DNA of 64,000 nt from assembly GCF_013167455.1 (NCBI RefSeq), contig NZ_CP038328.1. One strand, given 5' to 3'. The position numbers and the translations under genes were made by a program. Positions 19,619-57,281 of this stretch are shown piece after piece. The DNA comes from Escherichia coli O157:H7. Lineage in GTDB: Bacteria > Pseudomonadota > Gammaproteobacteria > Enterobacterales > Enterobacteriaceae. Position 1 is the stretch's first letter. Each line of letters begins with the position of its first letter. The notes under the pieces were generated by a model. That model searched no databases. It worked only from the letters and a program-made list of their open reading frames with translations, and was not told the DNA's origin.

Positions 19619-19898
19619 CCATGACCGTCATTCCGAGCAGTGAGAGAACCGGACAGGCTTTAAGCGGCCCCGACTCCATCAGATCCGAAAGCAACGCGCA
19701 GGCAATTTCCAGCCCTCTTTGCTGCCCATGCTGGCGCAGATAGAACCCTTCCAGCTCGCGGGCTATGGCATCTTCAAGTTCAGCGAGCGTCAGGCCGGAA
19801 TAACGTTCCTGATGATTGCTTAGAGCCAGCCAGGCACAGGCAACGGCACGGCGATACAGAGCGGCACGAAGTGCCAGAAGAGATTCACAGCATATCAT
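19575..19898 (-). CDS. Hypothetical satellite-phage protein upstream of primase
   Basis: 107-aa ORF with start overlapping the stop of the upstream ORF; left-operon position. Confidence 0.35.
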
Positions 19899-20119
19899 CA
19901 GGCCACCTCCGCATTCATCAGGTCGTCATGGCAGCGTTGCACCACTCCATCCAGTTGCTCTGTCATCAGATAAATGAGGGAAACCAGTTGTTCGCATTGG
20001 GCACCTGCTGGCTTTTCATAACAGTCCTGCAGGGCTGCCATGCCAGTTACATACTCACCCACATTGCGTAAATGTTTCAGCCTTACAACATCGTCGTAGG
20101 AAATCTCAAACTGGTTCAT
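19898..20119 (-). CDS. Hypothetical small satellite-phage protein (epsilon-like position)
   Basis: 73-aa ORF translationally coupled to downstream ORF. Confidence 0.35.
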
Positions 20120-20669
20120 AGCGTCACCTCCCCGGCAGGCAGCCGTGCAGAAAGGGAGAGTACATAATCTCGGACTAGCAAACGGCGCGCGGAACGCTCA
20201 TCGCAGGAGACAGTGCGAAGCATACAGATGCGGGGGTGAGTGTCAGCACGGCGGATTGCGGCAAACACAAAGACATATTGCGGGTGTGACGGGGTGAGGA
20301 TTGTAGCCATGATGGCAGCCTCCAATAAGTAGCGGTTATTGCTACCACCGGAAACGCCAATTTCACTGGTGGCAGCCCGAACGGGGTTGGCGTAACCGGC
20401 CTTATTGGAAACCGGCCAGCCCGAAGGCTGCCCCGCCCGGACTACCATTATCTCGATAGAACCATGGTGTAAGCATAAACACCACAGCCCTGAAAATGGT
20501 TGTGCCTGAGCTACGACGTAAAAAAAGACGCAAGGGGCGTCAATTGTCGCCAATAAGTTATACGGAACGCCAATTCCGGCTGCCGATTTTGCGACAGCGG
20601 AAAAACTATACCTGGAAATGACGACAGTAAGCAAGCCAGAATAAAGGTATTTAATGTATGCAGGTATCA

Positions 20670-20930
20670 TCATGCATCACATCCCCGCCCACGGGCGCTG
20701 ATGCGGTCCGCCATCCATGCGCTGACCTCAGACTGTGCCCAGGCGACATTTTTACCGCCAAGCGGGATCTGCTTCGGAAACGCATCGCGGCTGATCAGGT
20801 CGTAAACGGTCGAACGGGACAACCCGCATAAGTGCATCACCTCAGGCAGGCGTAAAAATCGCTCATGATGGTTCGATACAGGAAATAATGGCGCAGCAGG
20901 AGCTGGCGCAGACACAGAAATATTACGCAT
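20670..20930 (-). CDS. alpA: AlpA-family phage transcriptional regulator / excisionase-like
   Basis: [40 protein letters not shown] matches AlpA/MerR-like HTH. Confidence 0.7.
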
Positions 20931-21863
20931 TTATCTACCCTCTTTAATTTCCACAACAGTCCGGATGAATTTATCCGGGTTCAGGTAGTTCCTTATTATG
21001 TGTATATAAACCACCTGCGCACGCATTTTTTATTTAGCGTCACATATTGATTTTATGGAATTTAAAGCCCGATTAAACCATATAAAATGACATAATAAAT
21101 ACCATGCCTGCGGACTATAAATACAGGAGCATTAATAGGAACTACCATTCACCCAGGGTTTACTATCCTATGGGTCATTGCACCTGATAGTGCTAACCCC
21201 ACCGCCAATACAGCAAGGCAGTACAACTTCTACACGAGGCCTTGCATTGCAGGCCCCAATTTCCGGGCATATTTTTGAATCGCATCCAACTTATAAACAT
21301 TGGGCCTGCATAAAAACCTTGATATTAAATAACATCACCTTAAATCGTAAAATATATCCGAATGAATCCATAAAGAACCGGACAGATCTAGTTTTATAAA
21401 AATCAGTATGAAATGCAACACCATGGCCAGAGGCGAAAATGTTATTCCCCGGCAAAAACATGCAGTCTATTTATGTGCCTGTTGAATACTCCTGAATAAG
21501 GGTGAATAGTGGTGAGGAGCAAAAAACAAATAGCTACGAGGAATAAAAAAACCACCCATTATGAAAAAATACCATAAATAATTTTATTCCCATGTGAACA
21601 GTTATGAACAGTCGATGAATACTGCCATGCCAACCCTTCACCTTATAACCTTCTGTATTACCTATTTTTTTTACCTAAGTGAATAGTAGTGAATAGTTAA
21701 GGTAAGTCTGAAACAGCCTTAGTTAAACGAGGCCTTTTCTGGCTAGCCAAAAGAGGTCCGGGGCGGTTCAGTCTTTGTCTTGTCGCTCGCACAATGGCGT
21801 TCAATGGCAGCTTTGTATGCATCACAGCACAATTGACACCACGACAAACCACTAGGTGCTGAC

Positions 21864-22616
21864 ATGACAATCCCAGAACAGAACAATAACCCGATCGTTG
21901 AAATTTCTATCCCTGTTTCGACGCAACAGGCGCTTGAGAAAGTGAATGCCACCAAATCTGCATGGCTTGAAGCACGTCGTCAGCAAAAAGCGGCAGCGGA
22001 TAATATTGCGACAATCCGCCAGCGCCGCGCTGAAATGGAAGCCACGACGAACGCCCTGAATGAGGAGTGGCGCACGCTATTTCGTGAAAGTCAGGGCGTA
22101 GTCTCAAAGGAAATGAAAAAACTGCGCACGGAAATTGCGCTGGGACGAGAAACGCTTGAGGATTTTGATGAGCTGCTGGCGGCTCAGGAAAGCGAAAATG
22201 CACTTTTGCCGCAGGAGGCTGCGGAATTAGCCGGAAAGTATATCCACGCGCACGACACCCTTGTGGGTATTCGCGCAAAACAAATCTGGGAAGATTTTAT
22301 GCAGTCGCATGGAAAAGCACTAATCCAGACACTAAGCCTGCTCAAATCAACAATGGGCAGGGAAGCCAGCGCAGTTGTCGGTGTGGTGCATTCAGTTAAT
22401 GACCCGGACACACTGCTGAAAGATTTTATTCATAAACATATCACCAGACCGGCTCTGACTAACGATGCGATGCCCGAACAGGACCCCGTGTTTAAACTGG
22501 CGGGAGTTGCCCCGGATTATGCGGCCCGTCTGGATTTCAGTAATAAACTCTCTCCAGCAGCTATGCATAAAATGAAGGTTCGTCAGGAACGTGCTGAGAA
22601 GGAGAAAGCAGTATGA
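21864..22616 (+). CDS. P4 Sid-like (capsid size determination) or Psu-family helical protein
   Basis: 250-aa strongly alpha-helical protein, first gene of the rightward satellite operon; size matches Sid. Confidence 0.4.
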   Translation: MTIPEQNNNPIVEISIPVSTQQALEKVNATKSAWLEARRQQKAAADNIATIRQRRAEMEATTNALNEEWRTLFRESQGVVSKEMKKLRTEIALGRETLEDFDELLAAQESENALLPQEAAELAGKYIHAHDTLVGIRAKQIWEDFMQSHGKALIQTLSLLKSTMGREASAVVGVVHSVNDPDTLLKDFIHKHITRPALTNDAMPEQDPVFKLAGVAPDYAARLDFSNKLSPAAMHKMKVRQERAEKEKAV

Positions 22617-23164
22617 TGGCCCGAGTCACTCCAGACCAAGCGCTTATCAGTTTTAGAAATGCCCGTATTCTGTGGGCTGGACATAGTGAGAGCCGAAAAG
22701 CCGTTGAACAACAGATAGAATCACTCCTCACTGCCATGGAAAAACCAGCAGATTATGCTCGACAGCTCGAATTACAGCGGGAACATCTGGATGTGCTGAA
22801 ATGGCAAATTAACTGTGCTGCGCGCGAATGCATTTACTCGCAGCATCAACTGATGGAGGCCTGCACAGAAGACGCTCTCAGCAATTTTATGCAGGCGAAT
22901 GGAGCAGCCCTGACATCTGCACTGGCTCCGTTCCTGAAGGGGCGCGGAGGGGTTGACGTTGCGTCCCGTATATTACGCAATGCTCTGGTTCGCCAGCTGG
23001 CAATAACACCGCCTGAAATTGCCGGGGATTATCGTATGATTCTGGATGAATCCGGTGTGATGCCTGACCCCATGATGGTTCGTGATTGCCAGAGCTCTTA
23101 CACCCCTGCACAACAACTGCGCTTTCAGCAACGTCTGGATTACATTAACGGCATGCAGGAGTAA
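22613..23164 (+). CDS. P4 Psu-like (polarity suppression) protein
   Basis: 183-aa helical protein translationally coupled to preceding gene; size and position match Psu. Confidence 0.4.
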   Translation: MMARVTPDQALISFRNARILWAGHSESRKAVEQQIESLLTAMEKPADYARQLELQREHLDVLKWQINCAARECIYSQHQLMEACTEDALSNFMQANGAALTSALAPFLKGRGGVDVASRILRNALVRQLAITPPEIAGDYRMILDESGVMPDPMMVRDCQSSYTPAQQLRFQQRLDYINGMQE

Positions 23165-23169
23165 TATTA

Positions 23170-23442
23170 ATGGCACTTAAATGTCCCGAATGCGGTACGA
23201 CGGCACACGCCAGAACCTCCGCCTATGAAGCACCATCGGTTAAACGCTCATGGTATCAGTGCCAGAATCTTGAATGTTCCTACACATTTACCGCACTGGA
23301 AAGTGTGGATACGATAATCATGAAGCCCCGGCGCAATGAACAGGAATCAGAGAAAGCACAAATGCCGGAAAAACAACAGCAAACTCTCAATCGCTATGGC
23401 TCCGCGTCAAAGCTGTCAAGCCGTCAGCAAATTCCTGTCTGA
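23170..23442 (+). CDS. Ogr/Delta-family zinc-finger late transcription activator
   Basis: CPECG...AHARTS...YQCQNLECSYTF matches the Ogr/Delta C4 zinc finger. Confidence 0.8.
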   Translation: MALKCPECGTTAHARTSAYEAPSVKRSWYQCQNLECSYTFTALESVDTIIMKPRRNEQESEKAQMPEKQQQTLNRYGSASKLSSRQQIPV

Positions 23443-23462
23443 TTAGCAAAAAAAGCCCACGT

Positions 23463-23489
23463 AATCCCGGTCCAGTACTGGGATTTTTT
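23463..23489 (+). terminator. Rho-independent terminator after the ogr/delta gene
   Basis: AATCCCGGTCCAGTACTGGGATTTTTT: GC-containing palindrome followed by T6. Confidence 0.55.
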
Positions 23490-23851
23490 ACGCCTTTTCC
23501 CTGGCTGGCCTGAGAGCGCATGAGTGCATGTCTATAGCGCATGAAAACGCATGATTCTCATGCACCATTTTTGACGCGAAAGCCCTTGTGTGGTGGCTTC
23601 TGAGACGATTTGCGGAATGCATGAAAACCAGTCTGTTAAGCGAAGCGAGCAGGCGTGGGGGGCTGCGCGCGCTAAGGGGTTAGATTATAAAATATCAAAC
23701 GCCGGTGAGATCCATTATTGTGGAACCACCCGAAGGAAGTGTAGAGGCGAAAGTACCCAAAATAATTTTGCAAATTATTTAGAAATGAACTGAGCGCTCG
23801 AAACGAAATATAATTTCGAGCACCCCAATTAGCAGTTATATTTTTAATGTA

Positions 23852-24418
23852 TTAAACAGGATAAAAACCAGAGCTTCCATTCTTATTTAAGTTATGGATT
23901 TTATTTGCATCATTAATTTTTATTTGGAACGTCGGACCTTTATTCTCAAGAATTACAATCTGGAAATTATAGTCCCTTTTGATTAATGCGTGATAAAATG
24001 AATCACTGAGACTGACGCTATTAACATCCGATAGAGAACCCCCTCTATCTTTATCAAAGTGCGTCACTAATGGACTATCAAGCACAACAAATCCAATGAA
24101 TGGATTCCCTTTTCTTGATAAAAATTCCGCAAAGCAAATGGTAAATATAGCATGCATTACTGCACGGGTACCTTTACCAAACATTCCTCGGCGTTTCCCA
24201 TTGATATTAAAGTCATATGTATCTTCGTCAAATCGCACTTTGTTATCTTTAGAATTTTCAAAATTTATATCATTCAAAAAGTCTTGCATCGCTATTTCTA
24301 TATCATACAAATCAGCTACTGTTAAGGAGTCAAAGTCCTCGGCGGAGTATTTAAGTTCGTCAACATCATCTTCTTTATCTTGTAATGAAGATAGAATGCT
24401 ATGTTTTGTGTGATCCAT
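23852..24418 (-). CDS. Cargo ORF F: C-terminal ABC/SMC-like ATPase half (signature-like motif + Walker B-like)
   Basis: GKGTRAVMHAIFTICFAEFL followed by FIGFVVLDSPLVTHFD resembles ABC signature/Walker B/D-loop; start overlaps stop of ORF E (TAATG). Confidence 0.5.
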   Translation of the reverse strand: MDHTKHSILSSLQDKEDDVDELKYSAEDFDSLTVADLYDIEIAMQDFLNDINFENSKDNKVRFDEDTYDFNINGKRRGMFGKGTRAVMHAIFTICFAEFLSRKGNPFIGFVVLDSPLVTHFDKDRGGSLSDVNSVSLSDSFYHALIKRDYNFQIVILENKGPTFQIKINDANKIHNLNKNGSSGFYPV

Positions 24419-25008
24419 TAAAAGATTGTCTTTATATTCATAAAGTGATTCAAGAGATGAATGTATTGTTTTATATTTTTATCTTCTAACGTCTTAAAAT
24501 CACTTTTTTCTGATTGATAAATTTCATTAACATCATTTTTTCTTAACATAATTAATTCATGTTCGCGAACATTAGATCCGATTGATTCAATTAATCCTTT
24601 CAGCTGGCTTTTGATTTTCAATTTTTCTGCATTACACGACAAAAAACAATCATCATATGATATTTCATTTTCTTTTTTTTGCGGTGTATTACAGAACTCA
24701 CAATAAATATCTGCAAAATTATTTAAATAGAAATTCGCCTGTGATACAACATCTATTCTTTGTAGATCTATAAAGTATTGGTCTTTAAGAAGACTAAATC
24801 TTTCAATGAGTAATGATAAGTATTTTTCCCTGTCACTGATTGAATATAATTCATCACTTAACTCTTTTAATAATTGCTTCTTATCATCAAGTGCATCAAC
24901 AATACCTTTCAATATATCTTTCGATGATTCAATATCTTGCTCTACTTTCTCAAGTTCTCTTGAAACAATGACTTGATCATATTCAGGATAAATTAATTGC
25001 GCTTTCAA
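24418..25008 (-). CDS. Cargo ORF E: coiled-coil segment, likely middle part of the same ATPase
   Basis: 196 aa, K/E/L/D-rich helical composition; only TTG start; same frame as ORF D, separated by one TAA. Confidence 0.45.
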   Translation of the reverse strand: MKAQLIYPEYDQVIVSRELEKVEQDIESSKDILKGIVDALDDKKQLLKELSDELYSISDREKYLSLLIERFSLLKDQYFIDLQRIDVVSQANFYLNNFADIYCEFCNTPQKKENEISYDDCFLSCNAEKLKIKSQLKGLIESIGSNVREHELIMLRKNDVNEIYQSEKSDFKTLEDKNIKQYIHLLNHFMNIKTIF

Positions 25009-25038
25009 TTCCTCATAAATATTTGCAATTTGATTTTT

Positions 25039-25698
25039 TTAAAAATATCTTGCTTTTTTATTTGGTTTTTCTGCTAAGGAGTTAGTATCATCTCTCTGAG
25101 TTAAAAGGAATTTAAATTCAGACTTTCTTTTTGTCTCCTCGCTAGGAATATCAGAAAGAATTAACGACTTCTCAGTTAACACTCTTAATTCATCAATACA
25201 AAAAAATTCAAAAACATTATTAAGATTAAATTTATGAAGAGTATTACTTAAGTTTGTTCTTACTTTAGCCTCTTTGAAATTCAACCTACCATAAAAGTAT
25301 GATGAAAAACTCTTTTTAGACGAAGCACTTTTGGAAAAAACCATCAACAGATTAGCTTCACTAACATTTTCAATGCTCGAATCATATAATCTGTAATGGG
25401 CGCTATCCTGAAGAGACCTCTCAATTGTCATTACCCTACCTTGAAAATTAAATTCCAGATAGGCTAAATCATAACCTTGAGCATGATCGATATCTTTATT
25501 TTTTAGTTTTTCACTCCCTAATAAATATCGAATCAAATAATATATGTATGTTTTTCCAGAGTCAGAACCACCATATAAAATAGTCAATTTAGAACCAAAT
25601 TCAATTATAGCATCTAATTTATTGAATCCGGTTACCTTTATTTTTCTGAACGTAAAAAAATTGTCATTCATAATTAAATTCCATATCATATTTGCCAA
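25039..25698 (-). CDS. Cargo ORF D: N-terminal ABC/SMC-like ATPase head (Walker A)
   Basis: FRKIKVTGFNKLDAIIEFGSKLTILYGGSDSGKTYIYYL: SMC/AAA_15-like N-terminal strand plus Walker A GxxxxGKT. Confidence 0.55.
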   Translation of the reverse strand: MANMIWNLIMNDNFFTFRKIKVTGFNKLDAIIEFGSKLTILYGGSDSGKTYIYYLIRYLLGSEKLKNKDIDHAQGYDLAYLEFNFQGRVMTIERSLQDSAHYRLYDSSIENVSEANLLMVFSKSASSKKSFSSYFYGRLNFKEAKVRTNLSNTLHKFNLNNVFEFFCIDELRVLTEKSLILSDIPSEETKRKSEFKFLLTQRDDTNSLAEKPNKKARYF

Positions 25699-26137
25699 TT
25701 TTATTTTTTATAATTGATTGCAACTGCTCATCAGGAATATCACTATATAACTTAACCACCAAATTTATATTATGCTCCATCTGCGCAACATATTCATTAT
25801 GTAGAGAATTTGTAAATGCATATGTTTTTTCAGAAGCTTTATATACAAAACCACGATGTGTATAAATTTTTGAGGCTAGTTCATAGCCTTGCAACAAAGC
25901 CAATGATTCTAAAACAATCTCTCGTTTTAGGGCTAACTGAGCATCTCTACGGGGTATTGGAGGATGAAGACTAATCTCTTCAGGTAAAAAATCCTTAAGA
26001 TTTACTAAAATAAAATCAAAACAAATAAGCCGTTCAAGGCTTAATGAAGAAGGATAAATAGCGACGAGCACTTTCGCCATTCGACATGCCACTTCTAAAC
26101 TTGAATTATAAATTCTAACCATTATCTCACCGTCCAA
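25664..26137 (-). CDS. Cargo ORF C: hypothetical protein
   Basis: 157-aa ORF, AT-rich, overlaps neighbours by 16 and 35 nt; no recognisable motif. Confidence 0.4.
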   Translation of the reverse strand: MDGEIMVRIYNSSLEVACRMAKVLVAIYPSSLSLERLICFDFILVNLKDFLPEEISLHPPIPRRDAQLALKREIVLESLALLQGYELASKIYTHRGFVYKASEKTYAFTNSLHNEYVAQMEHNINLVVKLYSDIPDEQLQSIIKNKIGKYDMEFNYE

Positions 26138-26739
26138 ATTACTTCACCATCATTAACCAAATGATGGCATATTCCTTTTTTATCATTTGCTTCACATATT
26201 TTTGATAGTACTGAATGTGCAATTGGTGTCAGAACAGCCTGCTTCAAGACTGCATTACACCTAATAAATGCATAATTATGGTCTTCATAAAAGACGGGTT
26301 CAATTGAAGATGAAATGTAACATTTCAATGCTTTGAATACATCATCTTTAAATACTTCGCGGACAAAAACCTCAAGCGAAGATGCAAAATAAAAATCATT
26401 TCTACTATTATTAAAGTGTCGTCTGTATGGATCATCAAGCTCTAAGAAAGAACTATAAGTTTTATTTCCATGCTCTGAATAGGCTTGAAGCAGTGCATTA
26501 ACATATACAGACTCTTTTTTTGAATTGTATGTTGGAATTTCATTTGGAGGGATTCTCACGACATACAGCTCGTTAAAGTACTTAAAATAAAGGTGTGTAT
26601 TTGCAATATCATTTAAAATCAATGATAAGGGTAGAGAGTAAAAAATACTAAAATCAAAATCCTCAATATATTTTTTTATTTCATCATCTAATGGAATATC
26701 AATCTTTTTAGTTATTTTTTTGAAATTGCTGAATCCCAT
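26122..26739 (-). CDS. Cargo ORF B: hypothetical protein (possibly C-terminal part of a frameshifted gene with ORF A)
   Basis: 205-aa ORF overlapping ORF A by 28 nt across an A7 homopolymer. Confidence 0.4.
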   Translation of the reverse strand: MGFSNFKKITKKIDIPLDDEIKKYIEDFDFSIFYSLPLSLILNDIANTHLYFKYFNELYVVRIPPNEIPTYNSKKESVYVNALLQAYSEHGNKTYSSFLELDDPYRRHFNNSRNDFYFASSLEVFVREVFKDDVFKALKCYISSSIEPVFYEDHNYAFIRCNAVLKQAVLTPIAHSVLSKICEANDKKGICHHLVNDGEVIWTVR

Positions 26740-27017
26740 GAATCAAGGACTGCTTTTTTAAGCTCGTTTTTATTTTTCAATAAATTAGAAAATGTAGTAG
26801 ATAAATCATAGGGTGCCACAAAAAAGTACTTCTGAGGGATGGGATAATCACCATTCAGAGTAAAATAGATAAGTTTTCCAAACTCAACTACAACATCAGA
26901 GAACCCTAAACTTTTTTTGTACAGTTTGCATTGATAATTATCCCAAGAATAACCTTCTACGTTAGGATCCGATTTATATCCAACAACGTCTCTACCTTTA
27001 TCTCCAGCTCCTCCCAA
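26712..27017 (-). CDS. Cargo ORF A: Mrr-cat-like PD-(D/E)xK nuclease motif protein (no ATG start; possibly disrupted)
   Basis: GGAGDKGRDVVGY ... YQCKLYKK resembles the Mrr catalytic motifs (GDGGIDG ... QxK); frame stays open upstream to ATG GGA TGA TGA at 27087-27098. Confidence 0.4.
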   Translation of the reverse strand: MGGAGDKGRDVVGYKSDPNVEGYSWDNYQCKLYKKSLGFSDVVVEFGKLIYFTLNGDYPIPQKYFFVAPYDLSTTFSNLLKNKNELKKAVLDSWDSAISKK

Positions 27018-27130
27018 ACGTTCGCTCCACGGGTAATCATCTGATTTACAGACAATAAGCCAATCATGGACAAATACCTCCCATGTTCATCATCCCATGT
27101 CAATATTTCCGAAAGTGGTTGAGACACAAA

Positions 27131-28312
27131 TTAACTCCTTTTTAGTCTTTCAAATATCAAATTACTGTACCAGTCCATCATAGACTTCCTTCCACTAAAA
27201 TATTGAGCATGGTTATAAGTCCCCCTAATAGAATTTTTATCTACATGAGCCAACTGGATTTCAATCCAAGCACTCTCAAAACCTTGCTCATGCAGGATTG
27301 TAGAAAGGGTATGACGAAAACCATGTCCAGTGACTTTTCCTCCATACCCAATACGCTTAATGGCTTGATTTATACTCGCTTCGCTCATTGGCCTATTCGG
27401 ATCGTTCCGCCCTGGAAAAACATAACGATAGTTCCCTGTCATGATCTTGAGTTCATTGAGTAAATCTACCGCTTGAGATGATAAGGGCACAAGATGTGGC
27501 CTACGCATTTTCATCCTTTCAGCAGGAATTTCCCAAATAGCGTTATCCAGATCAAATTCTTGCCATAATGCCGCGCGTAATTCGATGGTTCTCACACCCG
27601 TAATCATCAGTAATTTCGTGGCTATCTGGACAAGCTTACTCCCGGAGTAACCCTCTAAGGCACGTAGAAAATCAGGTATCTCATCAGCTTTTAGGAATGG
27701 GAAATGATTGGATTGGTGTACTTCGAGAGCGCTGGAGAGATCAGCCGCAGGATTGTACTCCGCCCTACCCGTTGCAATTGCGTAGCGAAACACTTCGGAG
27801 CAACGCTGCCGCACTTTGCGCATTTTCTCCAACGCACCACGTTTCTCAATTTTACGCAGAACGTTCAGCAGCTCTAGCGGTTTAATCTCTCCCACAGGCC
27901 TTGTTCCGACATAAGGAAAAATGTCGTTCTTAAACGCTTCCATGATGTCTGATGCATATCCCGCCGACCATTTAGCAGATTTAAGTTGATGCCACTCTCT
28001 GGCTATCTTTTCGAAGGCGTTCTCTGACTCTGTTTGCATAGCTAGCTTTTGCTCTTTTCGAACCTCACTAGGGTTCTTTCCTTCTGCCACAAGTTTTCGA
28101 GCTTCATCACGACGGGAACGAGCATCGGCAAGGGTGATCGTTGGGTAAACACCAAGCGAGATCATTTTGGGTTTGCCGGCATAGCGATAGCGGAACCGCC
28201 AACTCTTGCTTCCATTAGGTTCTATAAGTAATGACAACCCTAGCCCATCTCCAAATGTATAGGCTTTAGCTTCAGGCTTAGCGCGGCGAATCTGCATATC
28301 GTTTAAAGGCAT
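27131..28312 (-). CDS. int: P4-type tyrosine integrase
   Basis: N-terminal P4-integrase-like region (AKAYTFGDGLGLSLLIEPNGSKSWRFRYRYAGK); C-terminal catalytic region with RxxHGFRHT..Y residues; adjacent to tRNA-derived att. Confidence 0.85.
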   Translation of the reverse strand: MPLNDMQIRRAKPEAKAYTFGDGLGLSLLIEPNGSKSWRFRYRYAGKPKMISLGVYPTITLADARSRRDEARKLVAEGKNPSEVRKEQKLAMQTESENAFEKIAREWHQLKSAKWSAGYASDIMEAFKNDIFPYVGTRPVGEIKPLELLNVLRKIEKRGALEKMRKVRQRCSEVFRYAIATGRAEYNPAADLSSALEVHQSNHFPFLKADEIPDFLRALEGYSGSKLVQIATKLLMITGVRTIELRAALWQEFDLDNAIWEIPAERMKMRRPHLVPLSSQAVDLLNELKIMTGNYRYVFPGRNDPNRPMSEASINQAIKRIGYGGKVTGHGFRHTLSTILHEQGFESAWIEIQLAHVDKNSIRGTYNHAQYFSGRKSMMDWYSNLIFERLKRS

Positions 28313-31676: not shown

Positions 31677-32231
31677 TCATTTATCTCCGACCGGAAACTT
31701 CTTATACAGTGTCGATATACCAACATCATAGATGATCGCCACCTTTTGGCGAGGAACGCCTGATGCAATTAATCGCCCGGCCTGCGCCCATTGTTCTGGT
31801 GTAAGTTTGGGACGACGTCCACCAATTCGTCCCTGTGCGCGAGCTGCTTCCAGTCCAGCTTTTGTTCGTTCAACAATCAGTTCACGCTCCATTTCAGCCA
31901 GGGCACCCATCACATGAAAGAAAAAGCGCCCCATTGGGGTACTGGTATCAATTGAATCCGTCAGACTACGAAAGTTGATGCCTCGTTCGCGCAACTCCTC
32001 CACCAGCACGACAAGATGCCGCATACTGCGCCCCAGTCGGTCCAGTTTCCAGACCACCAGCGTGTCACCTGCCGATAATGTCCTGAGCAGCTTTTTCAGT
32101 CCTGGTCTGTCGGACTTTGTACCGCTTATCTTGTCTTCAAAAATCAGCTCACATCCTGCACACTCCAGCGCATTACGCTGTAATTCCGTATTCTGGTTAT
32201 TTGTTGATACGCGGACATAGCCAATAAGCAT
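31677..32231 (-). CDS. Serine recombinase DNA invertase (Pin/Gin/Hin family)
   Basis: MLIGYVRVSTNNQNTELQ N-terminus with catalytic serine, resolvase fold, C-terminal HTH; adjacent to inverted-repeat-flanked tail-fibre segment. Confidence 0.85.
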   Translation of the reverse strand: MLIGYVRVSTNNQNTELQRNALECAGCELIFEDKISGTKSDRPGLKKLLRTLSAGDTLVVWKLDRLGRSMRHLVVLVEELRERGINFRSLTDSIDTSTPMGRFFFHVMGALAEMERELIVERTKAGLEAARAQGRIGGRRPKLTPEQWAQAGRLIASGVPRQKVAIIYDVGISTLYKKFPVGDK

Positions 32232-32258: not shown

Positions 32259-32672
32259 ATGATGCCAGTTAGCCATAATCTCTGCATTTTCTTAAACGTT
32301 GGTTTGGGAGAAGCGGCAAAACGGGATGTGGGGACAGGGGAAAATCAGATACCGGACATGGCCTCTTTTGCCAGTGGTGATGGATGGATGAAATTACCCA
32401 ACGGGAAAATCCTGCAATATGGTCGTGGTGCGGTTACGCCGACATTATCGACGCAAACAATGAGAATTACATTCAGCATCCCTTTCTCCAAAAAAGCGGA
32501 CTGCGCCATGCTTACTCATTCTGGTGATGGCGGTGCGCCTTTAGGCGCTGGGCGAGGGTTCGTGATGACTGCAGAAGGCCCAACGTTAACCGGCTTTAAT
32601 TCTGCTTACAGAACGTCATCAACCAGCGACACGGTATCGATGAATTACAGTTGGTGGGCTGTTGGTGAGTAA
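32259..32672 (+). CDS. Alternative tail-fibre C-terminal variable cassette (silent orientation)
   Basis: ORF begins at the crossover site (…NVGLGEAAK…) and lacks its own N-terminal domain; followed by its own assembly chaperone. Confidence 0.5.
   Translation: MMPVSHNLCIFLNVGLGEAAKRDVGTGENQIPDMASFASGDGWMKLPNGKILQYGRGAVTPTLSTQTMRITFSIPFSKKADCAMLTHSGDGGAPLGAGRGFVMTAEGPTLTGFNSAYRTSSTSDTVSMNYSWWAVGE
32287..32312 (+). repeat. gix/pix-like recombination site (left inverted repeat of the invertible segment)
   Basis: TTTTCTTAAACGTTGGTTTGGGAGAA; its reverse complement matches 34178-34203 over the first 14 nt and about 20 of 26 overall. Confidence 0.6.
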
Positions 32673-32683
32673 TTTTATTCAGG

Positions 32684-33136
32684 GTGATTTATATGAATGA
32701 ATATGTTTATAGCGCAAGGCATAATGCTTTTTTCCCTGTGGATATGATTGATAAATATAAATCAGAGGGATGGGATTTATCAGACGCTAAGGAAGTAAAT
32801 CAAAATATTATCAGTGAGTTTATGGCTGAACCGCCACAAGGAAAAATCCGTATTGCCGGAGATGATGGGCTGCCTGCGTGGGCAGATATTCCTCCACCCA
32901 CGCATGAAGAACTTATTGAAATTACTGAATCAGAAAGACAGCTACTAATTAACCAGGCCAACGAATACATGAACAGTAAACAATGGCCCGGTAAAGCCGC
33001 TATTGGTCGTCTGAAAGGTGAGGAACTGGCGCAATATAATTTGTGGCTGGATTATCTGGATGCACTGGAGCTGGTTGATACCTCCAGTGCGCCAGATATT
33101 GAATGGCCTACGCCTCCGGCAGTTCAGGCCAGATGA
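32684..33136 (+). CDS. Tail fibre assembly protein (alternative cassette)
   Basis: 150 aa; conserved Tfa-like C-terminus (…DYLDALELVDTSSAPDIEWPTPP) shared with the convergent Tfa ORF. Confidence 0.6.
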   Translation: MIYMNEYVYSARHNAFFPVDMIDKYKSEGWDLSDAKEVNQNIISEFMAEPPQGKIRIAGDDGLPAWADIPPPTHEELIEITESERQLLINQANEYMNSKQWPGKAAIGRLKGEELAQYNLWLDYLDALELVDTSSAPDIEWPTPPAVQAR

Positions 33137-33710
33137 CATCCGGCGCGGTGCTGGTATCTGTTGCCGTCACCGCGTCAATGTAATCCAGCACAGCGTTAAG
33201 TCTGGTTGTTTCTGCCTGCGTCGGTTTACGTCCGGCCTGCAATTTCAGTTGAATCAGACTGATGGAAGCCATTGCTGCATCAATCAGTGACTGGCGCTGT
33301 GCTTCTGCCGCTTCTACTGCGGCACCGTGTTGTGCCTCAGTATCTGTCACCCATTTTTCACCATCCCATTTATCGAATGGCGTTAACGGGGCGATAGTGG
33401 TTGTATTTTCAGGATAATCACCCGGAGCTGTGATTTCTTTGGCGTCTCCCGTTTCGGTGTTATAGACGATTTCACCGCGATGGTCTGGCACATATTCCCA
33501 TGAGTTTAAATCCATCGAACGGCAGATAGCATAACCCGCCTTATGTATACCAGGTTCATCCAGACAGGAATATGCAGGGATACCGACACCAATGGCAAGA
33601 TATTCATTTGAAGTAGAAATATATTCCCGAGTTTTACCATCATAGTTATAGACGGTAATATTCCCCGCCTTCGTGGCAATAAGCTCGCTATTTAATACGG
33701 CGTTATCCAT
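33108..33710 (-). CDS. Tail fibre assembly protein (expressed cassette)
   Basis: 200 aa; C-terminus …LDYIDAVTATDTSTAPDVIWPELP, a paralogue of the opposite-strand Tfa. Confidence 0.65.
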   Translation of the reverse strand: MDNAVLNSELIATKAGNITVYNYDGKTREYISTSNEYLAIGVGIPAYSCLDEPGIHKAGYAICRSMDLNSWEYVPDHRGEIVYNTETGDAKEITAPGDYPENTTTIAPLTPFDKWDGEKWVTDTEAQHGAAVEAAEAQRQSLIDAAMASISLIQLKLQAGRKPTQAETTRLNAVLDYIDAVTATDTSTAPDVIWPELPEA

Positions 33711-52084: not shown

Positions 52085-52378
52085 ATGAAAAAAATGTTAT
52101 TTTCTGCCGCTCTGGCAATGCTTATTACAGGATGTGCTCAACAGACGTTTACTGTTGGAAACAAACCGACAGCAGTAACACCAAAGGAAACCATCACCCA
52201 TCATTTCTTCGTTTCGGGAATTGGACAGGAGAAAACTGTTGATGCAGCCAAAATTTGTGGCGGCGCAGAAAATGTGGTTAAAACAGAAACCCAGCAAACA
52301 TTCGTAAATGGATTGCTCGGTTTTATTACTTTAGGCATTTATACTCCGCTGGAAGCGCGGGTGTATTGCTCACAATAA
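52085..52378 (+). CDS. bor: Bor-family outer membrane lipoprotein (serum-resistance moron)
   Basis: MKKMLFSAALAMLITGCAQ lipobox; about 97 aa; opposite strand to the lysis genes. Confidence 0.7.
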   Translation: MKKMLFSAALAMLITGCAQQTFTVGNKPTAVTPKETITHHFFVSGIGQEKTVDAAKICGGAENVVKTETQQTFVNGLLGFITLGIYTPLEARVYCSQ

Positions 52379-52868: not shown

Positions 52869-53341
52869 ACCTCAATCTCTCTGACCGTTCCGCCTGCTTC
52901 TTTGAATTTTGCAATCAGGCTGTCAGCCTTATGCTCGAACTGACCGTAACCAGCGCCCGGCAACGAAGCCCAGATATTGCTGCAACGGTCGATAGCCTGA
53001 CGAATATCACCACGATCAATCATCGGTAAAGCGCCACGTTCTTTAATCTGCTGCAATGCCACAGCGTCCTGGCTTTTGGGGGAGAAGTCTTTCAAACCAA
53101 GCTGTTTACGGTAAGCATCCCACCAACGTGAAAGAAGCTGGTAACGTCCGGCGGCTGTTGATTTGAGTTTGGGGTTTAGCGTGACAAGTTTGCGAGGGTG
53201 ATCGGAGTAATCAGTGAAGAGTTCACCACCGACAATAACGTCATAACCGTGGTTACGTGTCGGTTGTCGTCCGTTATCCGTTCCTTCTGACCAAGCCACC
53301 ATATCAAGGAAAGCTTTACGCTGGGAATTTAGTACCTGCAT
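52865..53341 (-). CDS. Endolysin (lambda R-like lytic transglycosylase / lysozyme)
   Basis: 158 aa with …[10 protein letters not shown]… catalytic region; between holin and Rz. Confidence 0.8.
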
Positions 53342-53344
53342 AAA

Positions 53345-53680
53345 TTACTCCTTAGAGCCACCAAATTTGTTACCGATTACTCGCATTGCAGCCCCACGAA
53401 TAGCATCGACACCGATCAGCCCCACCCCACCACCAATGGCAACAGAAAGTGATTTAGGCCATCCGACATACTCAAGAGCGGATGCAAAGGTCAGCGTCAG
53501 AGCGCCACATAGCAAAATCTCGAGCGTTTTTCGCTTCCAGCCACCACCACCGCCAAAATAGGCGATGCGCAAACCAGCCATAACGATCGACATAATCACT
53601 GCACCCAGCGGTGTGTCTCCACGCCACCAGCTCTGAAACAACTCCAGCCAGTCCGGCCAGGTATTTGGGTTATGAGGCAT
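53345..53680 (-). CDS. Holin (class I-like; start uncertain, ORF open to 53776)
   Basis: Three hydrophobic segments and charged C-terminus; immediately upstream of endolysin. Confidence 0.55.
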   Translation of the reverse strand: MPHNPNTWPDWLELFQSWWRGDTPLGAVIMSIVMAGLRIAYFGGGGGWKRKTLEILLCGALTLTFASALEYVGWPKSLSVAIGGGVGLIGVDAIRGAAMRVIGNKFGGSKE

Positions 53681-53816
53681 TTCGTCATCTCTCACCTCGC
53701 GATATTTGCGGGTGCTGTGTTGGAAATAAAAAGGCCACGCAACGTGGCCACCAGAATTATTTCCCCACCAGTTCACTTACCTCTTTCACCGTCTGATTAA
53801 ACCGCTCTGACTCAAG

Positions 53817-54131
53817 TTAAACACCTAACGCCCGACGCCCCAGCGCCATTGCTGCTTTTATTGTGGAACCGAATCCCATAAAGAAATCAGCAACCAGATC
53901 ACCAGGTCGACTACTGGCATTGATTATTTGCCTGAGCATATCCGCCGGTTTCTCGCACGGATGTTTACCCGGGTAGAACTGAACGGGCTTATGCGTCCTG
54001 ACATCGGTATAAGGCACGGAGACTGATACGGAGAAATAGCGCCGGTGAGATTTAAACTCATCCAGCAATTCAGAAGATTTGCAATTCAGTGAATCATGAG
54101 ATACCACCAACTGGTGGTAGGATTGTCTCAA
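53817..54131 (-). pseudogene. Fragment of N6-adenine DNA methyltransferase (C-terminal part only)
   Basis: HPCEKP and DFFMGFGSTIKAA resemble MTase catalytic and SAM-binding motifs; 104-aa ORF with no N-terminal domain. Confidence 0.45.
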
Positions 54132-54302
54132 CTAGTGAGCTTTATACATTTAAGTGCGATGCACAGATAATAACCACGCCAATGGAATATCACACACAAA
54201 ATTGATAGAACACTAACAATAAGCCACAAAATAATTCACAATTTATTTTTACAGTGGATAAGTAGCAAAGTAGTGAATGTGAATAACGGCTAACTAAGAT
54301 GA

Positions 54303-54330
54303 AACAAAAAGCCCCACAATATGTGGGGCT
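54303..54330 (-). terminator. Rho-independent terminator downstream of the moron genes
   Basis: Minus strand AGCCCCACATATTGTGGGGCTTTTTG hairpin plus T-run. Confidence 0.5.
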
Positions 54331-54388
54331 CCTTCGCGATTTATAGTAAAATAATCGATTCTCTAGCTGAAAAAATCTTTAAAAATTA

Positions 54389-54622
54389 TCAGCAATACGC
54401 AAGTTTTTTACCGTCATCCGGTACTAGTTTGATCACTACACCAGGATTCTTACGCTCTAACATCTGAGTTTGACTCCATGTAATACCAAAGGTTTCCATT
54501 GGAGATGCATTGCCAGCAAAGAGTTCGGCGACGACTTTAGCTGCCTCAATCTCTATCTGCTCATGATGTTTCATAAAAATCCCCTTGTTCAGCACTAAGC
54601 TGTAGTTGCTTCTTTGAAGCAT
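54389..54622 (-). CDS. Hypothetical small protein (moron; probable start at internal Met, about 61 aa)
   Basis: ORF between Q and lysis cassette, bracketed by terminators; no motif. Confidence 0.35.
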   Translation of the reverse strand: MLQRSNYSLVLNKGIFMKHHEQIEIEAAKVVAELFAGNASPMETFGITWSQTQMLERKNPGVVIKLVPDDGKKLAYC

Positions 54623-54765
54623 AAAGGCAACAAAGTTTGTTACCTGAAGATGTATAAAGTAAAGCGTAGTACATTTTGTGTGTGCTTTGTGTGGATCCAG
54701 ATTGCATCAACTAAAAGAGGTTTTCAATACTTTTGTAATGATTCTGGAGAAATTAAGAATCTAAC

Positions 54766-55308
54766 TCACACTGATTGGTTAGGTAAAACGCTCCTAAGCA
54801 CCATTGCGCAACCACCTCGTTCGTAATCAGCAATGTACTCAAAACCACTTTCAGTATAGTATCTTATTGCCCCATCAACTGGACTAACTAAAGCTATCGA
54901 ATCAATAGATTCACCCTGAAGGTTCAGAAATCGTGCATATGCAGAGAAGCAATCCAAAACGATACCAAGCATCTGATGGTCTAGGTCTTCATGTGCATCA
55001 TTACGTTTTTCCATCCAGCAAATATGCACCGCATTTTTCGGCTTACAGTAACACCCAAATGCAAATCCAATAGGCTCCCCACGATAATAAACAACTAGTT
55101 TTATCGGGTGTTCTTCCATCATATCCATAAACACTCGCGACTTTAGTCCGGGATCCCACCGCAGTTTATTGTTAGCCTTGAGGAACTCCATATCTTTTAG
55201 TACCAGCTCGTCGGCATATACGAGCCCTAACGACTTATGAGGGAAGCGCCCTTTTAAATACTCTGCAACATTTTTAAATACTGCTGTTTGGAAGGCTTGA
55301 AACATCAT
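54766..55308 (-). CDS. Hypothetical protein, possibly GNAT-fold acetyltransferase-like (moron)
   Basis: C-terminal …DGAIRYYTESGFEYIADYERGG… resembles GNAT motif B; 180 aa. Confidence 0.35.
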   Translation of the reverse strand: MMFQAFQTAVFKNVAEYLKGRFPHKSLGLVYADELVLKDMEFLKANNKLRWDPGLKSRVFMDMMEEHPIKLVVYYRGEPIGFAFGCYCKPKNAVHICWMEKRNDAHEDLDHQMLGIVLDCFSAYARFLNLQGESIDSIALVSPVDGAIRYYTESGFEYIADYERGGCAMVLRSVLPNQSV

Positions 55309-55386
55309 GTCGATCCAGACGAGACGAAAGTTTAAATTCTACCTACTCGCCGAATACCATTTCAATGCCACACATCTAAAATTCCG

Positions 55387-55414
55387 AAAAAAAACCCGCA
55401 CATCAGCGGGTTTT
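55387..55414 (-). terminator. tR'-like rho-independent terminator just downstream of Q
   Basis: Minus strand AACCCGCTGATGTGCGGGTT followed by T8. Confidence 0.6.
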
Positions 55415-55519
55415 CTACTTTTTATTAAAGCCGGACACACAATGCCTATCATTGAGAAAATATTATCCATTTTTTTTGAAAAATGCAAGCATCATGTCGC
55501 CATTTTCGTCGAAAATCAT

Positions 55520-56272
55520 TCATCTCGTCACTTTCCTCAATTGTGTCTCAGCATACGCTTCTTCCTGCCAGCACTTTGTAACCAGTTTATCAATGACATC
55601 TGCATATCCTTTGTACCACTGATAATCCGTCAGGTCTGGTACCAGCTTCTGGACATGAAGCCGCGCCAGTGTGGTTGGTAAACGGCTAAACCGGTTTCCA
55701 TTGCAACGCCCACAAACCTTATAAACAGGCGTGCCATGAAGCCTGGTTCTTTTTTCATCCAGGACAATACCTTTACCCTTACACCCTCTGCACGCTGTGC
55801 TGACTTCTCCCTTACCATGACAATGCTGACACAGTTCCTTCACCCACTCTTCCTTGATAACAGATTCCCCGCTTCTGGAGTGTTTCACCACCTCGCGCAA
55901 TACATCATGAAATCCAGTACCAGCACAATGCTCACAGCGAGCCTTACTTGCCGCAGACCTGGAATAATCAGCAAAGGCAAAATTCACAAGGTAAGGAATG
56001 ATCTGTAGCCGGGTTTCTTCACTCAATTTGTTCAATGTCGGGTTATCCAGTGCCATCGCGTAATTGAGCAGACCTTCAATCGCAAACTGAGGATCCTGAA
56101 CACCAACTTTTGCCAGGAATAAGGCAAACCCAAGCGGTGCTTTCGACTGCACCATCCCCTGCGCAGCCATTACATCCGTAATTGTTAAACCACCAGAGCC
56201 TGTCGCCGGTGCGTCATCGCTCAATTTTGGAGATTTTGGGGAGTAATATTTCGGTAAGGCTTCAAAGTTCAT
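55520..56272 (-). CDS. Q: Late antiterminator Q
   Basis: 250 aa; Cys-rich zinc-binding region (CEHCAGTG…CQHCHGKG…CRGCKGKG…CGRCNG); position before tR' and lysis genes. Confidence 0.75.
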   Translation of the reverse strand: MNFEALPKYYSPKSPKLSDDAPATGSGGLTITDVMAAQGMVQSKAPLGFALFLAKVGVQDPQFAIEGLLNYAMALDNPTLNKLSEETRLQIIPYLVNFAFADYSRSAASKARCEHCAGTGFHDVLREVVKHSRSGESVIKEEWVKELCQHCHGKGEVSTACRGCKGKGIVLDEKRTRLHGTPVYKVCGRCNGNRFSRLPTTLARLHVQKLVPDLTDYQWYKGYADVIDKLVTKCWQEEAYAETQLRKVTR

Positions 56273-56285
56273 GCTCGTTCTCCAC

Positions 56286-57281
56286 TTACGCCAGTACGCC
56301 TATTGCCAGCGCACGATCGATAAAACGAAATATCAGCTCCAGCTGGGAGCCATACTTCTCTTCAAATGCCACGGTATCCGCATGCAGCTCGTCGTGATGC
56401 TTTCTGCACAAAGGCAACACAAAGAGGTCATGCGCTTTTGTACCCATTCCTCCCTGACCGTGACCTATCAGGTGGTGGGGATCATCAGCAGGCTTTCCAC
56501 AACATGCACACGGCTGTGTCTTAACCCAGCGCGTGTACTTTTCATTAACCCAGCGGCGACGTTTTGGGCGTAACATAAAAGACTCCGGCGACTCAGGATC
56601 CACTTTCAGCGCCAGCACCTTTTTCGCTTTATCCTGGATGATGCTGGTGGCAGGAACCGAAGGCACAAGGTCACTTTCCCGGGTAACAGACGGCACAACA
56701 GGCTTCGGTAATCTAAGTGCCTTACGGGCTGCACTTTCCGGTAAGGCATCCGCCAGGTCATTACGAATCAGCCACCAGCACAGTTCCGGCATTGTCACAA
56801 CGTGACTGTCATCAAAACCGAGATCCCGACGCACAACAGACAACACCCAGCGGGCACAGTTATCCGTTGCCATTGATTCCAGCCGTTCCGTGAACTGATC
56901 GCGCAGCTGGTTATCGCAGTGCCAGCACAGACGGATTGCGCCCGGAGCGTGTCGCATTGTGGTCATGTTCTCGCTGTGCCAGTCGGAATGAGGCCACTGG
57001 CAGCCTTTTTCACGAAGTAACCAGCTTTCAAGACATTCCACGCCACCAGCACGACGGATCACTGCCTCATTGCGGAACACGGCCCGAACGGCAGGATCAT
57101 CCGCCAGCGGTTGTGATGCCGCCGGAACGGCACCACTGGCGAAAGATGAATAACGTTCCGGCTCAGGCTCCAGCAGGACACGCCCCTGCATAAACAGGGG
57201 CATCAGCTCTGAACCTGGCCTGAACAATACGATCCCCATACGCGGGGCAATTTCAGGAGTCAGTAGTGCTCTCACGGTCAC
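56286..57281 (-). CDS. DUF968-family phage protein (YdfU-like)
   Basis: 331 aa; C-terminal Cys/His cluster (CACCGKPADDPHHL…CRKHH); lambdoid Nin-region position. Confidence 0.55.
   Translation of the reverse strand: MTVRALLTPEIAPRMGIVLFRPGSELMPLFMQGRVLLEPEPERYSSFASGAVPAASQPLADDPAVRAVFRNEAVIRRAGGVECLESWLLREKGCQWPHSDWHSENMTTMRHAPGAIRLCWHCDNQLRDQFTERLESMATDNCARWVLSVVRRDLGFDDSHVVTMPELCWWLIRNDLADALPESAARKALRLPKPVVPSVTRESDLVPSVPATSIIQDKAKKVLALKVDPESPESFMLRPKRRRWVNEKYTRWVKTQPCACCGKPADDPHHLIGHGQGGMGTKAHDLFVLPLCRKHHDELHADTVAFEEKYGSQLELIFRFIDRALAIGVLA

Follow-up and report, generated by a model that had tools for sequence, protein, structure and literature searches.

Between the late-gene antiterminator Q and the lysis genes of a prophage in Escherichia coli O157:H7 lies a foreign cassette, a moron, of two genes that are here called A and B. 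A encodes a very divergent protein of the GNAT fold, B encodes a 61-residue partner that is linked to A in every distinct locus recovered, and the pair has moved among several cargo slots of temperate phages. It was studied in a stretch of 64,000 nucleotides of contig NZ_CP038328.1 (RefSeq assembly GCF_013167455.1), which is what is meant below by the window and to which unprefixed coordinates refer. What might such a pair be for? The reading that is preferred here, tentatively and stopping short of calling it probable, is that the moron encodes a partner-controlled acyltransferase that would serve in conflict between phage and host or between one phage and another.

The A-B pair: linkage, fold and predicted complex

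The linkage of the two genes is strict. B stands downstream of A, on the same strand, in 40 of the 40 loci recovered through A, which represent 25 distinct module sequences and extend down to 45% identity in A. Three remoter A homologues (E 1e-11 to 1e-32) are each followed by a small open reading frame (ORF), recognisably B-like in two of the three, and in the reverse search remote B homologues from Vibrio, Aeromonas and Citrobacter were always preceded by an A-like ORF of 176-188 aa. Altogether A and B are linked, with B downstream, in all 47 distinct loci and, judged by this linkage, B is an obligate partner of A. Synonymous divergence is near saturation, and the ratio of nonsynonymous to synonymous substitution (dN/dS) lies between 0.04 and 0.12 in A and between 0.04 and 0.30 in B, by which measure each gene is under strong purifying selection.

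The family to which A belongs is small: a search of 5.8 billion proteins gave 28 clusters, and one of 1.84 billion gave 36 cluster representatives. Of 100,044 species-representative genomes 4 contain A by the patterns used, and one match each came from 50,697 phage records and 72,556 plasmid records. The sole plasmid record (CP044351.1:39590-40100, 67% identity) may be a phage-plasmid and, because its match is split into three pieces, the A homologue there may be frameshifted. Both proteins are labelled hypothetical in RefSeq and match PHROG families of unknown function, 11949 for A and 11292 for B. Pfam GNAT profiles give no match to A even at E 10, searches of PDB sequences with the A and B profiles returned chance matches only, and there is no family for either protein in NCBIfam or, at E <= 1, in PADLOC-DB v2.

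What kind of protein, then, is A? Its AlphaFold model, made from a 28-sequence alignment (predicted local distance difference test, pLDDT, 86; predicted template modelling score, pTM, 0.84), runs beta1-alpha1-alpha2-beta2-4-alpha3-beta5-alpha4-beta6-7, which is the full GNAT order, with an additional N-terminal helix in front, and on this model the GNAT fold of A can be taken as established. The entry identical to A in the AlphaFold database (AFDB) bears the label 'GNAT family N-acetyltransferase'. Outside the A family its nearest structural neighbours in AFDB are uncharacterised proteins of ~180 aa (template modelling score 0.7-0.8, 15-20% identity), the top structural matches are protein N-terminal acetyltransferases, and dozens of GNATs, RimI and Naa50 among them, are at least as near to A as TacT and AtaT are. 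The original prediction had suspected a GNAT-like motif towards the C-terminus of the 180-aa ORF and was right to do so, as this is GNAT motif B, with GAIRYYTESGF of A set by hhalign on AAIALYESLGF of RimI and Y151 falling on RimI Y115. The pattern of this motif, which lies in alpha4, is A-x-x-x-Y-x-x-x-G-F, its tyrosine being the general acid of GNATs. Since motif B alone was covered in that comparison of the A family with RimI, at a probability of 3.8%, motif A is not alignable by sequence and its loop has been placed by predicted secondary structure. At the site so placed for the pyrophosphate loop, between beta4 and alpha3 (102-107), the sequence is R-N-D-A-H-E, followed by D-L-D-H-Q, and nearly all of it is invariant. 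Y151 and F156 are invariant in the 28 sequences, and E100 (in strand beta-4), R102 and A105 are also among the invariant residues. Catalytic residues are plausibly present as E100, Y151 and R102, and from its fold A, which is mildly acidic (pI 5.95), would be an acyltransferase.

For B, 15 sequences gave no Pfam match at E <= 0.001, though two weak DUF matches at E of about 0.01-0.02, and by sequence there is no DNA-binding, helix-turn-helix (HTH) or ribbon-helix-helix (RHH)/DUF1778 signature. A B profile search gave 49 clusters, every one of a stand-alone protein 48-88 aa long, and the sources are Enterobacterales, Vibrio and Aeromonas. The small ORF had first been put at 61-77 aa, and it is the 61-aa form that stands and the 77-aa form that falls away: all homologues start at the same methionine, a Shine-Dalgarno sequence, AAGGGG, precedes it (54586..54581), and the Prokaryotic Genome Annotation Pipeline (PGAP) makes the same call.

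Do the two proteins meet? In a model of A and B joined by a linker, from 15 paired sequences, pTM was 0.81 as against 0.84 for A alone, and B, whose residues reach pLDDT 91-95, forms helices at residues 3-18, 25-29 and 33-42, then a short extended segment and a flexible tail that often contains cysteine. Relative to the model of A alone, confidence in A rose at residues 21-30 and 101-120, which hold family-specific invariant residues. A direct complex, with B near the unusual coenzyme A (CoA) loop, is what this model suggests as probable.

The cassette, its joints and its signals

The prophage at the A-B locus is an SfV-like myovirus with a lambdoid early and late regulatory region. Its Q is of the Qin/SfV type, with a DnaJ-like Cys-rich region, and has DNA 95% identical to that of SfV Q. 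In blastn comparison with SfV and mEp460 an identity of 94-95% runs from Q through the tR' hairpin up to 55388, where the similarity breaks, to resume only at 54126, inside a methylase gene. With 40.1%, the cassette is lower in GC than Q (47.8%), the lysis genes (50.8%) and the window as a whole (49.5%). The equivalent slot holds orf47 and an intact 350-aa methylase gene in SfV, and two other small genes and a methylase gene in mEp460. By these alignments an SfV-like prophage lost orf47 and the 5' two thirds of its methylase gene to the cassette, and it was this replacement that cut the methylase gene short; the remnant is 92-94% identical to the 3' ends of the mEp460 and SfV methylase genes. 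The resulting order on the minus strand is Q, tR', promoter, A, 191-nt spacer, B, terminator, methylase remnant, terminator, holin, endolysin and Rz/Rz1 (Table 1).

The definition of a moron is said to go back to Juhala in 2000. The cassette, which sits between genes that adjoin one another in related phages, is provided with its own promoter-like site and terminator and is deviant in GC, is on sequence grounds one of them. The original prediction of a two-gene moron in the Q-to-S interval is thus borne out by its own promoter-like site, terminator, foreign composition and defined replacement joints, and Q, both terminators, the two ORFs, the methylase fragment and the holin were all found on the minus strand at or near the positions given for them. 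Its picture of a pair insulated by its own terminators holds for the downstream one, which is the cassette's, and not for the upstream one, which is part of the recipient's Q-tR' region (SfV homology extends to 55388); likewise the unit placed at 54303-55414 is real as a cassette but not in its extent, as the foreign segment continues past the second terminator to 54127. The ~180 AT-rich nucleotides of 54127-54305, between the cassette terminator and the methylase remnant, match neither SfV nor mEp460, lack a convincing ORF and are presumably donor carry-over.

Table 1. Features of the A-B cassette and its immediate surroundings, in order of transcription
Feature	Position	Strand	Basis and remarks
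Q, late-gene antiterminator, 250 aa	55520..56272	-	ORF list; PGAP 'antitermination protein'; upstream neighbour, outside the cassette
Candidate late promoter PR', TTGCAT-17-TAATAT	55460..55488	-	Read by eye, between the Q stop codon and tR'
tR' intrinsic terminator, 11-bp stem + T8	55387..55416	-	-15.9 kcal/mol, z -4.1; none of 200 shuffles as stable
Foreign cassette (moron), 1261 bp	54127..55387	-	blastn against SfV and mEp460
Cassette promoter PA (candidate), TTGAAA-18-TAGAAT	55336..55365	-	10 of 12 matches, sigma-70-like, directly after tR'
Gene A, divergent GNAT-fold protein, 180 (or 179) aa	54766..55308	-	WP_021519681, phrog_11949
Conserved spacer block, TTGAAA-N17-CAATCTG	54698..54727	-	After the A stop codon; invariant in eight variants
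Spacer hairpin, AGGUAACAA/UUGUUGCCU	54625..54645	-	-9.2 kcal/mol, z -3.6; compensatory changes in relatives
Gene B, three-helix partner, 61 aa	54389..54574	-	WP_000680348, phrog_11292
Cassette terminator, GC-rich stem + T-run	54301..54334 (hairpin 54334..54306)	-	-20.2 kcal/mol, z -5.1
DNA methyltransferase gene, 3' remnant, ~105 codons	53817..54126	-	PGAP pseudogene 54131..53817, 'missing N-terminus'
Third terminator, before the holin gene	53733..53749	-	Same terminator annotated in SfV
Holin, lambda-family, opening gene of the lysis cassette	53345..53680	-	PGAP annotation

The promoter assigned to the cassette has been kept through divergence, as CATTGAAA-N17-GGTA(G/A)A(A/C)T keeps its spacing to the start codon of A in six variants with diverged surroundings. 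The candidate for PR' is absent from the promoter-scan output and matches at just three of six positions in its -35 hexamer. A terminator follows 3' of B in every variant, terminator-like sites in the 3.1-kb region number 11 against 2.6 expected, and the cassette architecture, promoter and terminators are kept across orders of Gammaproteobacteria. The SfV annotation also has a terminator at the position of tR', which by that homology is a property of the recipient phage and not of the cargo. The left joint of the cassette sits within the T-tract of tR', and a Citrobacter variant behind a different Q (L024:4790-4909) has the identical terminator stem, AAACCCGC/GCGGGTTT, with another loop, and these two observations suggest that terminators serve as recombination joints for moron exchange. 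An isrK-like Rfam match over the leader is weak (E 0.49), the Rfam scan of 53300-56400 giving nothing above threshold, and as there are no tRNA genes in the window the slot is without the tRNA cargo known from Stx phages.

Is the spacer between A and B more than a gap? Its length is 191 nt in the window (54575-54765) and 80-232 nt across loci, and between the E. coli copy and the Citrobacter and L026 variants it is 74% and 64% identical, respectively, where identity at synonymous sites is 43% and 27% in the same pairs. Within its conserved block, TTG.AA and GCAATCTG are unchanged in eight variants; the block has the geometry of a promoter with a weak -10 hexamer, and may serve B as a weak promoter or else be an operator. 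The spacers of Pragia, Limnobaculum, Photorhabdus and the loci L028 and L006, read directly, hold a true terminator. Because the spacer is conserved, and has a promoter-like block and a hairpin or, in other lineages, a terminator, B is probably expressed at least partly by itself. A conserved RNA structure across the whole spacer finds no support (RNAalifold -0.44 kcal/mol); what remains, among close relatives, is the local hairpin and a 5' end that may pair with the ribosome-binding site of B. A hidden small ORF was rejected, as on neither strand is the length or the sequence of any ORF conserved.

Cargo slots and possible uses of the pair

Among 5,426 complete E. coli genomes, 97 have the cassette at an identity of at least 99%, and O157:H7 and cattle isolates make up most of the 25 matches listed. 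Were it to confer a phenotype by lysogenic conversion, for instance exclusion of phages or tolerance of stress, this would bear on O157:H7 ecology. In a wider circle of hosts the pair occupies the Q-to-S interval behind four types of Q (that of the window, that of Citrobacter and L026, that of L028 and that of Proteus), in L043/L044 inverted and beside umuDC, and it also stands at int-proximal prophage ends (Siccibacter, L031/L033, Citrobacter L052-L054), after the lysis genes in Pragia and in tail-gene regions (L030, L006). More distant pairs are in the P2-like gpA-portal slot in three lineages (L045, Vibrio L048/L049, Aeromonas L050/L051). That slot is an anti-phage hotspot with old, tin, retrons and others, and also with partition systems and the cdt toxin, according to the passages of Rousset 2022 (PMC9122126) drawn on here, which make no mention of the A-B pair. 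Literature searches by accession number and on GNAT, prophage and defence gave no description of it either. By its locations, the pair has the marks of exchangeable conflict or accessory cargo; as the same slots also carry non-defence genes, location does not tell defence from counter-defence or host fitness.

What the pair has for neighbours, or successors, varies. Directly 3' of it in Photorhabdus australis is a gene for a type-A chloramphenicol acetyltransferase (L038:5370-6008), with a HicB-like gene upstream, and a HicB-like gene adjoins the pair in L028 too. In Xenorhabdus bovienii (L056-L059; for example L056:3395-4150 and L059:3211-4162) the place between Q and S is taken by a gene for DUF7823, alone or fused to a Tad2-like part, and behind it come a copy of the B terminator and a 113-bp fragment from within B, which has 90-92% identity to Photorhabdus B. 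By its sequence this fragment is a recombination scar, the Tad2-like gene having displaced the A-B cassette there. That B-like proteins partner other enzymes (DUF7823, Tad2-like) in Xenorhabdus was rejected, just this 113-bp internal fragment being left behind B's terminator.

How might the moron work? In lambda, Q-modified polymerase reads through terminators. In the lysogen, transcripts from PR' would end at tR', and PA would then transcribe A and probably B, until the cassette terminator halted that transcription ahead of the holin gene, shielding the lysis genes; after induction, to go by lambda, Q-modified polymerase would pass all three terminators and the pair would be made late too. 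A would be a very divergent GNAT-fold acyltransferase with a P-loop arginine, a beta-4 glutamate, a motif-B tyrosine and an acidic His-rich CoA loop. B, translated from the stronger ribosome site and possibly transcribed from its own promoter, would bind A and either hold it inactive or steer it to its target, which is more likely to be a protein than tRNA. Acylation of that target would give the lysogen or prophage an advantage over phages or mobile elements, by exclusion or by a response like abortive infection. It is only because of where the pair is found, in the P2 hotspot in three lineages, in the Q-to-S interval with four types of Q and at int-proximal ends, that a role in conflict is proposed.

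Several points weigh against a partner-controlled acyltransferase for conflict. Motif A, by which GNATs are characterised, is not there in its canonical form, the loop of A being R-N-D-A-H-E in place of Q/R-x-x-G-x-G/A, and as this loop is acidic the binding of acetyl-CoA by A may be absent altogether. The most distant branch (L043, L050) has neither the EKRNDAH loop nor the motif-B tyrosine. A has no match in Pfam, NCBIfam or PADLOC-DB v2. The complex comes from a linker-fused model with 15 paired sequences, where the tether may bias the result, and the cargo slots in question hold non-defence genes too, the partition systems and cdt toxin named in the above passages of PMC9122126 as well as, in Xenorhabdus, the Tad2-like anti-defence gene. 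Should the pair nonetheless be a working system, it would enlarge the small set of enzyme-plus-partner modules traded between the cargo slots of temperate phages by a new architecture, the first in the set to combine a GNAT fold with a B-type partner.

A more specific proposal, possible but doubtful, is that A-B is an unrecognised two-gene immunity or abortive-infection system, in which A, held by a partner that has its own promoter, is freed on infection and acylates a phage or host protein. This would be a new GNAT toxin-antitoxin (TA) or defence architecture, with partner and gene order unrelated to those of TacAT and AtaRT.

Would a strict TA module not do as well? A would then be a growth-arresting GNAT toxin acting on charged tRNA or another essential target, and B its labile antitoxin, the use being prophage stabilisation or abortive infection; toxin-first order with a separate antitoxin promoter is known from higBA and hicAB. 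A is never without B in the 47 loci, only fragments of B have been seen without A, B has the stronger Shine-Dalgarno sequence and its own conserved promoter-like block, its binding to A is predicted by the tethered model, and there are the HicB-like genes that adjoin the cassette in L028 and L038. We consider such a module unlikely all the same, as B is downstream, 80-232 nt away and often behind a terminator, unlike the antitoxin of characterised GNAT TA pairs, and is without a DNA-binding or DUF1778 signature. A, for its part, is acidic to neutral (pI 5.95) where tRNA-binding toxins are basic, is in structure no closer to TacT or AtaT than to RimI and Naa50, and has a non-canonical motif A. 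The earlier thought of a tRNA-acetylating toxin of the TacAT/AtaRT kind is left without support by these observations, together with the promoter-like and hairpin or terminator elements in the spacer, a B that lacks DUF1778/RHH and an A that lacks a GNAT profile match.

More unlikely than that is host fitness or detoxification, where small cationic compounds, for instance aminoglycosides, polyamines, streptothricin-like substances or toxins of the microcin type, would be acetylated by A, and B would serve as a small regulator or accessory subunit. An obligate partner of 61 aa, conserved to about 20% identity, would be superfluous for an enzyme of that sort, even if acidic His-rich substrate and cofactor loops would suit a cationic substrate and the promoter of the cassette looks constitutive. 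The chloramphenicol acetyltransferase gene adjoining the cassette in Photorhabdus australis fits this proposal as well; however, unlike resistance genes, the family is confined to temperate-phage cargo slots and very rare (the 36 representatives in 1.84 billion and the single record in 72,556 plasmids given above), and its top structural matches act on protein N-termini.

Those same matches, being protein acetyltransferases, agree with a proposal that we rate as less likely again, counter-defence, where A would acetylate and so inactivate a host immune protein, with B as adaptor. For a GNAT anti-CRISPR there is a precedent, AcrVA5, which reportedly acts on Cas12a in this way, and in Xenorhabdus it was a Tad2-like gene that displaced the A-B cassette from the same Q-to-S slot. 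Counter-defence genes are normally early, though, whereas the Q-to-S interval is transcribed late or constitutively, and the P2 hotspot where the pair is found in three lineages is dominated by defence. That A and B are decaying cargo or a mis-called ORF pair, as their hypothetical labels and lack of family matches might lead one to think, is scarcely credible given dN/dS far below 1 in both genes at saturating synonymous divergence, confident structure models, and architecture, promoter and terminators conserved across gammaproteobacterial orders.

Elsewhere the window, which is collinear with E. coli O157:H7 strain ECP19-598 at 99.99% identity, has other features of note. The invertible tail-fibre segment at 32294-34196, which adjoins pinE (31677-32231), is reversed relative to ECP19-598, other parts of the first 49 kb being collinear, and by this comparison it is a host-range switch of the Pin/Gin type in the opposite state. 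At 17228-28312 is a P4-like satellite (primase-helicase, Icd-like, Psu, Delta, integrase), in whose integrase-proximal hotspot (23852-27127) genes labelled 'ABC-three component system', an AAA ATPase gene and two hypothetical genes may form a defence locus. A second, classical moron of the A-B prophage, an iss/bor-type gene for a serum-survival lipoprotein, is directly after Rz on the opposite strand (52085-52378, plus strand).

Relation to known systems

How do A and B compare with what is already known? To our knowledge, every characterised GNAT TA pair has an upstream RHH/DUF1778 antitoxin and a tight operon. Three defining features of the GNAT/RHH type II systems (TacAT, AtaRT, KacAT, ItaRT) were looked for here, an upstream DUF1778 antitoxin, a tight operon and a GNAT toxin specifically related to TacT, and none was found. 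Where theirs is an overlapping or abutting operon with the antitoxin first, here a partner of another kind comes second, after a long structured spacer, and where their toxin is recognisable as a GNAT, A has no such profile match, is non-basic and has a non-canonical CoA loop. Toxin-first systems (higBA, hicAB, mqsRA) are like A-B in having the enzyme or toxin first, the small partner second and possibly an internal promoter for the second gene, but their protein families are unrelated, the A-B spacer is much longer, and no HTH is detected in B by sequence. With its toxin-first order A-B may even so act in the manner of a TA or abortive-infection module. To RimI, Naa50, Naa20 and Ard1 the identity of A is 11-19%; A has the additional N-terminal helix and an invariant R-N-D-A-H-E-D-L-D-H in place of their Q/R-x-x-G-x-G/A loop, and is phage-borne, with a dedicated 61-aa partner.

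With P2 gpA-portal cargo the likeness is one of place, as that exact slot holds the more distant A-B pairs (L045, Vibrio, Aeromonas), whereas the copy in the window is in a lambdoid/SfV-like prophage, and PADLOC v2 has no A-B model. It is with the lambdoid morons (stx, bor/iss, lom, cspB/cspF of Qin) that the cassette has most of its anatomy in common, being like them an autonomous unit of promoter, gene and terminator, deviant in GC, between genes that are adjacent in relatives, and likewise predicted to be expressed from the prophage. It differs from them in its new two-gene cargo, in joints that lie at terminators and in the truncation of the methylase gene by its insertion, and it is a clean case both of moron exchange with joints at terminators and, through Xenorhabdus, of the turnover of such cargo.

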